Shown here piece after piece: positions 23,015-27,626 of a DNA stretch of 64,000 bases (positions within the stretch are counted from its first letter, which is position 1; each line of letters begins with the position of its first letter). The stretch is from Escherichia coli. GTDB taxonomy: Bacteria; Pseudomonadota; Gammaproteobacteria; Enterobacterales; Enterobacteriaceae. The stretch lies in assembly GCF_030384885.1 (NCBI RefSeq), contig NZ_CP128613.1; one strand, given 5' to 3'. Under the pieces are notes generated by a model that saw only the letters and a list, made by a program, of their open reading frames with translations, made no database searches and was not told the DNA's origin. Made by a program: the position numbers and the translations under genes.

Positions 23015-23030
23015 GTTCACTATAAAATAG

Positions 23031-23060
23031 AACGGGGCCAAATCGGTCCCGTTTTTTTTC
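23031..23060 (+). terminator. rho-independent terminator of the glg operon
   Basis: aacggggcc-aaatc-ggtcccgtt stem followed by an 8-T run. Confidence 0.75.
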
Positions 23061-23131: not shown

Positions 23132-24649
23132 ATGGAAAGAATAATGCAAAACAGAAAATGGATTTTGACCTCGCTGATAATGACTTTTTTCGGCATCCCC
23201 ATACTGGCGCAATTTTTGGCAGCGGTTATTGCCATGCTGGGGGCCGGGCTTGCCGCTATTCTTGAGGCTTGCAATTTACTCTTTACGCCAACAATTTATC
23301 TTCTACTCAACGTCTTTATGCTGACGCTGGGGGCGATAATCCTATTTTTCTCTGGTCGCGTGTGGGCCGGTGATAGCGCACCAGAAAACAGAGAAATAGC
23401 CGTCTGGCGGCAATGCTTTTTTCTTTTACCTGCACTGTTAACTCTGGTTGGCTGGATAATCACGCTACATCTGGCAGATTATCAATTTCGCCAAATGGGA
23501 GCAGGTTGGTTGGCAGAGCTTATGCTCCCCTGGCTGGGAGTTTTGTTAGTCTCATTAGTCGGAGGTGAGTTCTGGTGGATAGTCATTATACCCGTTGGTG
23601 CGCATATTAGTTTTTCGCTGGGGTATGGCTGGCCGACCAGATATCCTTTAACCGGCACGTACGGGTTACGTTGCCGTAATTCCCTCCTGTTTATCCTTCT
23701 CATGCTTGGTTTTATCGCTGGTTATCAGGCTTATTTATATAAACAGATTAATCCCGGCGTCGGTGTGCGTGAAAATATTGATACCTGGGCCTGGCGACCC
23801 GATAAACTCAATAATCAACTGACGCCACTGCGTGGTAAACCGCAAATTCAGTTTACACAAAACTGGCCGCGACTCGATGGTGCTACGGCGGCGTACCCAA
23901 TTTATGCTTCTGCCTTTTATGCGTTGAGCGTTATACCGGAAGATTTCCACACATGGGAATATCTGGAGAACTCTCGTACCCCCGATGCATATAACAGGAT
24001 TGTTAAAGGTGATGCCGATATTATTTTTGTGGCGCAACCTTCCGGTGGGCAGAAAAAACGTGCAGAGGAATCGGGCGTCACTTTGAACTACACTCCTTTC
24101 GCCCGTGAAGCATTCGTTTTCATCGTCAATGCGGATAACCCGGTTAATTCCCTGACTGACCAACAGGTGCGTGACATCTTCAGTGGCGCAATTACCAACT
24201 GGCGTACTGTTGGCGGTAACGATCAGGAGATCCAGACCTGGCAACGCCCGGAAGACTCTGGCAGCCAGACAGTGATGCAATCGCAGGTCATGAAAAATGT
24301 CCGCATGATCTCGCCGCAGGAAACCGAAGTGGCAAGCATGATGGAGGGAATGATTAAAGTTGTTGCCGAATACCGTAATACAAACAACTCAATAGGCTAC
24401 ACCTTCCGCTATTACGCAACACAAATGAATGCCGATAAAAATATAAAACTGCTAGCTATTAACGGTATTGCACCGACTGCGGAAAATATTCGTAACGGCA
24501 AATATCCATATATCGTCGATGCCTTTATGGTAACGCGGGAAAATACTACGTCAGAAACACAAAAACTGGTCGAATGGTTTTTAACGCCGCAGGGGCAGAG
24601 TCTGGTGGAAGATGTGGGTTATGTACCGTTGCATACAACAATGAAATAA
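23132..24649 (+). CDS. islet 1 gene 1: polytopic membrane domain fused to a PstS-like (phosphate-binding-protein fold) periplasmic domain
   Basis: 505-aa ORF; residues about 1-200 form several hydrophobic helices; the C-terminal part shows PstS-like motifs (AAYPIYASAF; QRPEDSGSQTVM, compare PstS RADGSGTS; SIGYTFRYYA). Function not assigned. Confidence 0.7.
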   Translation: MERIMQNRKWILTSLIMTFFGIPILAQFLAAVIAMLGAGLAAILEACNLLFTPTIYLLLNVFMLTLGAIILFFSGRVWAGDSAPENREIAVWRQCFFLLPALLTLVGWIITLHLADYQFRQMGAGWLAELMLPWLGVLLVSLVGGEFWWIVIIPVGAHISFSLGYGWPTRYPLTGTYGLRCRNSLLFILLMLGFIAGYQAYLYKQINPGVGVRENIDTWAWRPDKLNNQLTPLRGKPQIQFTQNWPRLDGATAAYPIYASAFYALSVIPEDFHTWEYLENSRTPDAYNRIVKGDADIIFVAQPSGGQKKRAEESGVTLNYTPFAREAFVFIVNADNPVNSLTDQQVRDIFSGAITNWRTVGGNDQEIQTWQRPEDSGSQTVMQSQVMKNVRMISPQETEVASMMEGMIKVVAEYRNTNNSIGYTFRYYATQMNADKNIKLLAINGIAPTAENIRNGKYPYIVDAFMVTRENTTSETQKLVEWFLTPQGQSLVEDVGYVPLHTTMK

Positions 24650-24674
24650 CTTTTGAGAGAACGGAATCAGCGCG

Positions 24675-25667
24675 ATGAATAAATTCATAGGCGTTTTACT
24701 GCTAGGTGCGGTTTTACTGGCGGGATGTGTCGACCGGGAAGGCTACTATAACAGCGTCAGGGAAGAAGACAGCCATGGACTGACGACTCTGCGGGGGCAA
24801 CCTGAATTACGTTACAACGATGATTGGTCAAGATGGCCGAGAGTATACGGCGCTACAGCCTTATACCCGCTGTATGCCTCCGCGTATTATGAATTAGTAC
24901 CCGAGCCAAAAGATAAGGATCGAACCTCGCTGGCCTGGCAGGCGTATGGTTTGCAACAAACCCGAACAGCTGAAGCCTACGATAGTCTGATCAAGGGTAC
25001 CGCGACGGTTATTTTTGTTGCACAACCGTCGGAAGGACAGAAAAAACGTGCAGAAGAAGCAGGCGTTAAACTGAAATATACCGCGTTTGCCCGCGAAGCC
25101 TTTGTCTTTATCGTTGATATCAAAAACCCGGTTAATTCACTTAGCGAACAGCAGGTCAAAGACATTTTTAGCGGTAAAGTGAGTCGCTGGAATAAAGTGG
25201 GCGGCGGTGACGAAAGTATAAAAGTCTGGCAGCGGCCAGAAGATTCTGGAAGCCAAACGGTTATGAAGGGACTGGTTATGCAAGATACTCCAATGCTGCC
25301 AGCCAAAAAATCCACTGTTATCGATCTTATGGGCGGTTTAATTACCGAAGTCGCCGACTACCAAAACACAACATCTTCCATTGGATACACCTTCCACTAT
25401 TACGTCACACGTATGAATGACAATATGCTCAAAATGCGCAAACAGATCAAACTGCTAGCTATAACTGGCATTGCGCCTACAGAGGAAAATATCCGTAACG
25501 GCACTTATCCGTACATAATTGATGCTTATATGGTGACGCACGAAACCCCTGCGCTGGAAACGCAGAAATTCGTCGACTGGTTTTTAAGCCCGCAGGGACA
25601 GCAATTGGTAGAGGATGTGGGGTATGTGCCGATTCATGACGCATCATACGAATCATCAGTGCAATAA
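24675..25667 (+). CDS. islet 1 gene 2: lipoprotein with PstS-like substrate-binding domain
   Basis: 330 aa; lipobox LLAGC; same motifs as the gene-1 C-terminal domain (ALYPLYASAYY; QRPEDSGSQTVM; SIGYTFHYY). Confidence 0.72.
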   Translation: MNKFIGVLLLGAVLLAGCVDREGYYNSVREEDSHGLTTLRGQPELRYNDDWSRWPRVYGATALYPLYASAYYELVPEPKDKDRTSLAWQAYGLQQTRTAEAYDSLIKGTATVIFVAQPSEGQKKRAEEAGVKLKYTAFAREAFVFIVDIKNPVNSLSEQQVKDIFSGKVSRWNKVGGGDESIKVWQRPEDSGSQTVMKGLVMQDTPMLPAKKSTVIDLMGGLITEVADYQNTTSSIGYTFHYYVTRMNDNMLKMRKQIKLLAITGIAPTEENIRNGTYPYIIDAYMVTHETPALETQKFVDWFLSPQGQQLVEDVGYVPIHDASYESSVQ

Positions 25668-26269
25668 TGATGAATAAAATCAGACTTTATATTCCTCCGT
25701 TAATTCTTGGTTTTGTTATTGTGCCGTTGTTGGTGTGGCCGACGGTGGTTGCGCTGGCTGCTTCTGTTATCACGCTGAGTTTTCTGGGAGAGATACTGTT
25801 CTCTATCCCGCTCATGATCAGGCGTATTTCACTTCTGCAATTACAACTATGGTTATCGGCTGAATATGCGCTTTTCTTCTGTGCAATGGTGGGCGTTGGT
25901 TGGCAATTTGCGCGCAGAACGCCACCTGAATTGAAAAGCAGACTGCATTGTTGGCTGGTATTTGCACCAGTTTATTTCTGGTTGCTCCTGTGGAATATCA
26001 TTTTCTATGTCGCGCCAGCGAATATTGCGTTGCTGGAGAATATGCGCAGTTTCTTTCTGACAGTTGTCTGGCTCCCACTGAATTTTTCGCCATTTTGGTC
26101 TCAACCGTGGATTGACTTTGTCGGTCCAATAAGCGCACAGCTTGGTTTTGCGTTGGGATATTATTGCCAGTGGCGTAGCAAAAATAGAAGCCAGATACGG
26201 AAGTGGAGTGAGTGGGGAACGTGCCTGAGTTTTGTTACGTTGGGTATGATGGCGTGGGCTTTGCGGTAA
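25667..26269 (+). CDS. islet 1 gene 3: small polytopic membrane protein, paralog of the gene-1 N-terminal domain
   Basis: 200 aa, 4-6 hydrophobic segments; PISAQLGFALGYYCQW resembles PVGAHISFSLGYGW in gene 1; start ATG overlaps the gene-2 stop (TAATG). Confidence 0.65.
   Translation: MMNKIRLYIPPLILGFVIVPLLVWPTVVALAASVITLSFLGEILFSIPLMIRRISLLQLQLWLSAEYALFFCAMVGVGWQFARRTPPELKSRLHCWLVFAPVYFWLLLWNIIFYVAPANIALLENMRSFFLTVVWLPLNFSPFWSQPWIDFVGPISAQLGFALGYYCQWRSKNRSQIRKWSEWGTCLSFVTLGMMAWALR

Positions 26270-26376: not shown

Positions 26377-27626
<1,250 letters not shown>

Follow-up and report, generated by a model that had tools for sequence, protein, structure and literature searches.

The stretch of DNA analysed here, called the window, comprises 64,000 nucleotides (nt) of Escherichia coli (RefSeq assembly GCF_030384885.1, contig NZ_CP128613.1), and between glgP and glpD it contains an islet of three genes, which we refer to as genes 1, 2 and 3. 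The gene order in the window is glgA, glgP, gene 1, gene 2, gene 3, an IS3-family element on the minus strand, glpD, glpE and glpG (Table 1); the islet is chromosomal and 100% identical to that of E. coli strain 2013C-4282. All three open reading frames (ORFs) described in an earlier note on this DNA were confirmed at the same positions, and RefSeq labels the product of gene 1 a "PstS family" protein. The earlier note had read gene 1 as a fusion of a membrane domain and a binding domain, gene 2 and gene 3 as the split counterparts of these two domains, and the whole locus as the outcome of a duplication followed by fusion or fission. The descriptive part of this reading holds, as BLASTP and hhalign comparisons find a fused protein together with free-standing homologs of both of its domains, and the TAATG overlap of genes 2 and 3 is present. 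The origin is probably a different one: the explanation we consider best for the locus as a whole, with a probability of roughly 0.7, is that three members of one family meet here, that the fused gene is the old one, that the split appearance was produced by cassette replacement, and that the proteins act as tethered binding proteins.

Table 1. Features of the three-gene islet and its flanks, with positions in the window.
Feature	Position	Strand	Basis or remark
glgP terminator hairpin and T-run	23030..23059	+	Read directly from sequence; left edge of islet
Gene 1, fused protein of 505 amino acids (aa) (502 aa from RefSeq start 23141): membrane domain, linker and PstS-type binding domain	23132..24649	+	ORF, RefSeq, Pfam
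Gene 1 N-terminal membrane domain, residues 1 to ~206, six long helices, no Pfam family	23132..23749	+	
Gene 1 C-terminal PstS-type binding domain, residues 230-501	23819..24634	+	59% identity to gene 2
Gene 2, 330-aa lipoprotein-type PstS-like binding protein	24675..25667	+	ORF, lipobox, tree
Chimeric 3' tail of gene 2, right-hand junction of the putative cassette replacement	25634..25667	+	DNA alignment with forms B and C
TAATG stop/start overlap of gene 2 and gene 3	25665..25669	+	Read in sequence
Gene 3, 200-aa free-standing membrane-domain homolog	25667..26269	+	hhalign, BLASTP via intermediates
IS3-family insertion sequence in the gene 3/glpD interval, programmed-frameshift transposase	26377..27590	-	Right flank in this strain

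The binding domain links gene 2 to the C-terminal half of gene 1. Residues 36-321 of gene 2 and residues 230-501 of gene 1 are 59% identical over 286 residues (E 4e-119), which on sequence grounds places their similarity far above chance, and all of the long motifs that the earlier note had quoted for this pair are present; the identity of gene 2 to fused proteins of Salmonella reaches 62%, which makes gene 2 about equally distant from these and from the C-domain of gene 1. The Pfam domain PF12849 (PBP_like_2) covers residues 250-485 of gene 1 (E 1.4e-29) and is also carried by gene 2 and the homologs of gene 2, and a profile search with the binding domain matched solved PstS proteins with E 1e-20 to 1e-15. 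The anion-loop motif R-x-x-x-S-G-S (R187-x-x-x-S191-G192-S193) is invariant and aligns with PstS structures, G59-A60-T61 is likewise invariant, and by analogy to E. coli PstS these residues may contact phosphate. Gene 2 moreover has a lipobox, L-A-G-C, at residues 15-18 (LAG/C), which ends a lipoprotein signal, and its product is predicted to be exported to the periplasm as a lipoprotein. For gene 1, an arginine-rich loop ahead of the last helix suggests export of the binding domain. Gene 1 would represent the standard form of the family, composed of a six-helix domain of ~200 residues, a final helix with a short linker, and a PF12849 domain that is expected to face the periplasm, and gene 2 would be the lipoprotein-anchored version of the binding domain.

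The relationship between gene 3 and the N-terminal domain of gene 1 is weak when the two sequences are compared directly, and firm when intermediates and profiles are used. Direct BLASTP gives E 0.062 over 35 aa, hhalign of shallow alignments that contain only Escherichia sequences gives P 0.016, and shuffle tests give z ~3.6 for a full shuffle and p ~0.05-0.07 for block shuffling with the hydropathy profile kept; a word-based search with the N-domain of gene 1 returned Escherichia fragments only, and an exhaustive HMMER search with a gene 3 profile returned Escherichia-type sequences or fragments and one distant relative, P0150, with no fused protein found directly. Such values would fit a chance similarity between two hydrophobic proteins of like length, but this explanation is refuted, and we give it practically no weight, because of the comparisons that reach beyond the genus. 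It was the addition of the N-domains of fused homologs from other genera that established the homology. BLASTP through these intermediates spans the proteins end to end at E 1e-8 to 1e-15: gene 3 matches N-domains of fused homologs from other genera with E 4.6e-8 over 187 residues, and P0150 matches a Salmonella N-domain over the full length, with E 7.6e-15 and 32% identity across 185 aa. When 67 N-domains of fused proteins, with gene 3 sequences left out, were combined into a profile, hhalign aligned it to the gene 3 family with Prob 98.8%, E 6.4e-17, 169 columns and a score of 108.8, compared to control scores of 19 for the reversed profile, at most 39 for 20 block shuffles, and 20 for the unrelated membrane protein GlpG. 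The motifs shared by the two proteins are collinear and have the same residue numbers, as is seen for PVGAHISFSLGY at residues 154-165 of gene 1 and PISAQLGFALGY at residues 154-165 of gene 3. This shared motif, P-x-[GS]-A-[HQ]-x-x-F-x-LGY, had been assigned by the earlier note to the last hydrophobic segment; it lies in the penultimate helix (H149-169 of the model). Gene 3 is thus a free-standing homolog of the membrane domain of gene 1, one that evolves fast.

Pfam and NCBIfam contain nothing significant for the membrane domains. An AlphaFold2 model of the membrane domain, computed with a 36-sequence alignment, has six long helices with a mean predicted local distance difference test (pLDDT) score of 88.8 and a predicted template modelling score (pTM) of 0.85; for gene 3 with an Escherichia-only alignment the pLDDT was 45.9 and the model unusable. 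When the membrane-domain model was searched against AFDB50 with Foldseek, nearly all matches at E <0.001 were proteins whose annotation includes a phosphate-binding (PBP/PstS) domain. PBP-domain proteins of ~470-480 residues make up the weaker matches (E 0.09-0.24, probability 1.00), and since one of these belongs to the Firmicute Xylocopilactobacillus, the structural matches extend the fused form to Firmicutes. The fold of the membrane domain can be regarded as a confident prediction that is without a solved relative.

The fused architecture of ~500 aa is widespread. A search with gene 2 recovered it from Salmonella, Klebsiella, Intestinirhabdus, Phytobacter, Leclercia, Rahnella, Budviciaceae, Leminorella and Saezia. 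Most of the proteins recovered have an N-domain homologous to that of gene 1, with 30-40% identity in the case of Salmonella and Klebsiella, and in the more distant ones the homology is weak or missing. In ~75 fused homologs read, from Enterobacterales and beyond, the two domains are covalently linked, and for this reason they very probably cooperate in the fused proteins, in which the membrane domain would serve as the anchor and as a probable partner of the binding domain. The suggestion of the earlier note that the domains work as a pair can be kept for the fused proteins to this extent; it is not supported for genes 2 and 3 as a dedicated pair, the adjacency of which is not conserved. Salmonella (L015; L numbers denote the loci read) and Klebsiella have the order glgP, fused gene, variable segment, glpD, and in a further Salmonella locus (L012), where glgP is missing, the fused gene likewise precedes glpD. 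The fused form is an old resident adjoining glpD in Enterobacteriaceae, situated in the glgP-glpD interval in most of the loci read (Escherichia, Salmonella, Klebsiella). Pseudocitrobacter has at the corresponding locus a short binding-protein gene and a degenerate fused gene: in Pseudocitrobacter cyperus (L011 6001-8057) the short gene overlaps (ATGA) a 351-aa gene in which the membrane domain is combined with a binding domain that has an internal deletion. The last ~35 residues of this binding domain are almost the same as those encoded by the short gene beside it, and suggest that gene conversion took place and that the fused gene is decaying. In the TA054-type Escherichia lineage (L017/L018 2487-5981; L023 1006-4501) two short binding-protein genes stand downstream of a 516-aa fused gene, and gene 3 is absent; all three paralogs of this array are joined by 4-nt overlaps in L023/L024, and only the two short genes overlap in L017/L018.

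Within E. coli the locus occurs in several forms. Form A, that of the window, consists of genes 1, 2 and 3; form B of gene 1, a 255-aa gene and gene 3; and form C of gene 1, a 236-aa gene, the 255-aa gene and gene 3. In a B2 strain gene 1 is missing, and a fimbrial operon is followed by the 236-aa gene, the 255-aa gene and gene 3. In SF-468, a strain that lacks gene 1 at the locus, no binding-protein gene is present in the 12.6 kb read around gene 3. Among 5,426 complete E. coli genomes, gene 1 was found in 3,347, gene 2 in 884 and the 255-aa gene in 2,952. The 255-aa gene, which encodes a cysteine-rich soluble protein, fills the slot of gene 2 in most E. coli strains, sometimes together with the gene of the 236-aa protein (L003 4751-5518; L004 5663-7143; L008 121-957). 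The 255-aa protein matches no family in Pfam or NCBIfam, and the 236-aa protein has no match in Pfam and only a weak one, to the YbbD N-terminus, in NCBIfam; PADLOC gave no match for gene 2, gene 3 or these two proteins. A 234-aa protein with 56% identity to the E. coli 236-aa protein (L004 5663-6373) is encoded downstream of the fused gene in Klebsiella and Salmonella (L013 7838-8958; L015 7534-8657), together with a YbbD-like protein of 139-181 aa. In the 234/236-aa proteins the initial ~45 residues correspond to the YbbD N-terminus (PRK09781), and the rest of YbbD is matched by the 139-aa protein. K-12 has lost almost the whole islet and has kept only the pseudogene yzgL, which in K-12-type strains (L006 3141-3362) corresponds to the first ~226 nt of gene 1, at a locus that also retains the last ~60 nt of gene 3, so that yzgL is a deletion remnant of the islet. 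The IS3-family element of the window is missing from the O157 and TL20 versions of the locus and is outside the three-gene system.

How gene 2 came to stand in front of gene 3 can be read from the junctions. DNA alignment shows that form A and forms B/C diverge immediately past the stop codon of gene 1 and become similar again from ~35 nt before the end of gene 2 on into gene 3. The C-terminal tail of gene 2, ...HDASYESSVQ, corresponds to the native ...YDASSESSGH of the 255-aa family, and the motif of this tail, C-L-C-A-M-[YH]-D, belongs natively to the 255/278-aa family, which means that gene 2 carries the last ~11 codons of the 255-aa gene. The corresponding junction to gene 3 in the other locus forms reads TAAAGATG with a 2-nt spacer, and the TAATG of the window differs from this ancestral TAAAGATG by one base. 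Moreover, upstream of P0150, the distant relative of gene 3, and overlapping its reading frame, lies a gene for a 278-aa protein that is homologous to the 255-aa protein (49% identity), and because P0150 has the same upstream partner, the 255/278-aa gene and gene 3 can be regarded as a conserved, translationally coupled module. Because the junctions are chimeric, we conclude that gene 2 took the place of the 255-aa gene and that its coupling to gene 3 is a legacy of that gene. The adjacency of genes 2 and 3 would accordingly in itself be secondary, brought about by a cassette that displaced the gene normally preceding gene 3 and left its last codons and the tight junction in place, and in the window strain gene 3 would be co-translated with gene 2 mainly through this inherited junction. 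Among the contexts examined, the two genes are neighbours only in form A loci of E. coli, and short binding proteins are found without gene 3.

All three genes are under purifying selection, as the ratios of non-synonymous to synonymous substitution rates (dN/dS) are 0.13-0.29 for gene 1, 0.10-0.19 for gene 2 and 0.17-0.37 for gene 3. When the islet of the window (23141-26269) was compared to other E. coli alleles (L002, L003, L005, L007), dS was 0.1-0.95 and dN up to 0.18, and the same comparison for glgP gave a dS of 0.05-0.2 and a dN of ~0.001. This divergence points to old allelic lineages or to repeated import by recombination.

A local duplicate of gene 1 that was split into gene 2 as binding part and gene 3 as membrane part, both still acting together as a non-covalent gene 1, is the origin that the layout itself brings to mind, with homologs of both domains side by side and a 1-nt overlap between them, with a fused architecture that argues for domain cooperation, and with purifying selection on all three genes. 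We nevertheless consider it improbable. Neighbour-joining trees with 200 bootstraps place genes 2 and 3 in lineages separate from gene 1. In the binding-domain tree the short lipoprotein types, gene 2 included, form a clade of their own (185/200, with one long branch left out), and the Escherichia gene 1 clade (200/200) was joined with the short types in 0/200 replicates; in the membrane-domain tree gene 3, its form B allele and P0150 form a clade (200/200) that was joined with gene 1 in 0/200 replicates and lies outside the core enterobacterial N-domains (144/200). On these trees, a local duplication of gene 1 did not give rise to genes 2 and 3. Gene 2 appears to come from a separate, old clade of lipoprotein-type binding proteins, and gene 3 from a separate, fast-evolving lineage of free membrane domains. 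In addition, the split genes stand in the order binding and then membrane, opposite to that of the domains in the fused protein; the junction to gene 3 derives from the 255-aa gene, as does the 3' tail of gene 2; genes 2 and 3 were seen side by side only in E. coli form A loci among the contexts examined; and SF-468 has gene 3 without a binding-protein gene in the stretch read. The duplication and fission proposed by the earlier note is thus not supported by trees, junction or gene order.

Another possibility, which we treat as tentative, is that gene 2 represents an orphan immunity cassette, as may the entire variable part of the islet, directed against Rhs toxins of the type VI secretion system (T6SS) that act in the periplasm, retained without its toxin as a protection. 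Genes for lipoproteins of the gene 2 clade are located directly downstream of Rhs C-terminal toxin domains in Escherichia albertii and Salmonella (L016 4459-5999; L009 2550-4241 and 5546-6993; L020 3402-4972; L025 2956-4466), and this position was found for clade relatives in L009, L016, L020 and L025-L028. In E. albertii, a VgrG gene and a PAAR-Rhs gene ending in a 131-aa toxin domain, CT1 (L016 4501-4893), are followed 84-105 nt later by the gene of the binding protein P0194 and then by another Rhs start. In Salmonella, one binding-protein gene follows CT1 (~67% identity to the copy in E. albertii), and a second one follows what remains of a different toxin domain, CT2; elsewhere an intact CT2 (L020 3402-3944) precedes P0191, and CT1 precedes P0197 beside PAAR and ankyrin-repeat genes. 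The two toxin families pair with different subclades of binding proteins. The relatives of gene 2 thereby sit where an immunity gene usually lies, and for gene 2 itself the role is a hypothesis, with which the lipoprotein signal, placing the product in the periplasm, and the hypervariability of the islet, with a dS of up to 0.95 compared to 0.05-0.2 for glgP, are consistent. Several observations speak against it. Neither a toxin domain nor the DPxGL Rhs core motif is present on the plus strand of the window, to which the scan was confined, and CT1, the one of the two domains that was searched for, was not found at the DNA level in complete E. coli genomes; a contig scan for CT1 gave one distant locus only. 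The subclade of gene 2 itself was found only beside glgP, without toxins, and the short binding proteins that are translationally coupled to the fused gene look like part of a paralog operon rather than like immunity cassettes. In Citrobacter a relative of CT1 (44% identity) is followed by a small membrane protein instead of a binding protein, and CT1 and CT2 match neither Pfam nor the PDB. One literature search directed at such a role returned nothing on a binding-protein fold as an immunity protein, and we know of no such case. We therefore rate it as doubtful, though worth stating, that the short PstS-like lipoproteins including gene 2 might form a new immunity family against periplasm-acting Rhs/T6SS toxins, with the glgP-glpD islet as an orphan-immunity island around an ancestral membrane-tethered binding protein. 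As an observation on the same arrays, other Rhs toxin domains (L019 2230-2941; L020 2031-3001), including one with 44% identity to CT1, have small membrane proteins of 111-113 aa with four helices encoded behind them, which presumably are the immunity proteins of their toxins.

The explanation that we prefer, three family members brought together by cassette replacement, would describe genes 1 and 2 as membrane-tethered periplasmic binding proteins that feed no adjacent ABC (ATP-binding cassette) transporter and that probably bind a phosphate-like oxyanion or a protein partner. No genes for ABC permeases or ATPases were called in the islet or in any related locus read with its flanks, and no Pho-box-like site was found near the islet; the binding proteins might still use a distant transporter. 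A number of points weigh against this explanation. Genes 1 and 2 score 118.8 and 115.8 bits against NCBIfam TIGR02136, both under its cutoff of 206.6 bits, and the N-lobe of the binding domain was not alignable to solved PstS proteins by HMMER, and for these two reasons phosphate binding is not assured. Six helices would place the N- and C-termini of the membrane domain on one side, and the charge pattern of the loops is ambiguous. The basal placement of gene 3 in the tree could be a result of long-branch attraction. Finally, the short binding-protein gene of P. cyperus is translationally coupled to a membrane-domain gene, and a coupling of short binding proteins with the fused gene is seen in other Escherichia lineages, so that free binding proteins and membrane-domain proteins could be functionally linked after all.

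The analysis corrects the annotation at this locus, as "PstS family ABC transporter substrate-binding proteins" are encoded here without an adjoining transporter and the fused form has a six-helix domain that had not been described. It places the "hypothetical protein" encoded by gene 3 in a family and explains the K-12 pseudogene yzgL, and it indicates that what looks like a textbook fission locus was actually built by cassette replacement among family members. Should the link to Rhs toxins hold, a binding-protein fold would join the known kinds of immunity proteins, and two new toxin domains would be defined.

Among known systems, the PstS family (Clostridium perfringens PstS, PDB 4q8r and 4gd5; Streptococcus pneumoniae PstS1, 4exl) resembles genes 1 and 2 in PF12849 and in the anion loop, R-x-x-x-S-G-[ST]. 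Binding proteins of Gram-positive bacteria are exported as lipoproteins, a feature that gene 2 shares. In contrast, classical PstS lacks the six-helix membrane domain of ~200 aa that gene 1 carries, and genes 1 and 2 differ from it by TIGR02136 scores under the cutoff, by the N-lobe that HMMER does not align, and by the lack of pstCAB-like genes in the loci read and of a Pho-box-like site near the islet. Like Rosetta-stone pairs, which are linked by fusion or fission, the islet has a fused protein and free homologs of both of its domains, here even in one locus; unlike in such pairs, the two free components lack co-inheritance, have no conserved adjacency and did not arise from the adjoining fused gene. 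Rhs/T6SS toxin-immunity modules and orphan immunity islands are an established concept in the field of polymorphic toxins. In at least 5 loci from two genera, the place immediately behind an Rhs toxin domain is taken by a relative of gene 2, whereas the window, scanned on its plus strand, has no toxin; the E. coli islet is, as orphan immunity islands are, a hypervariable cassette site. At the same locus, E. coli K-12 with its yzgL is left nearly without the islet, whereas the window has the intact three-gene form.

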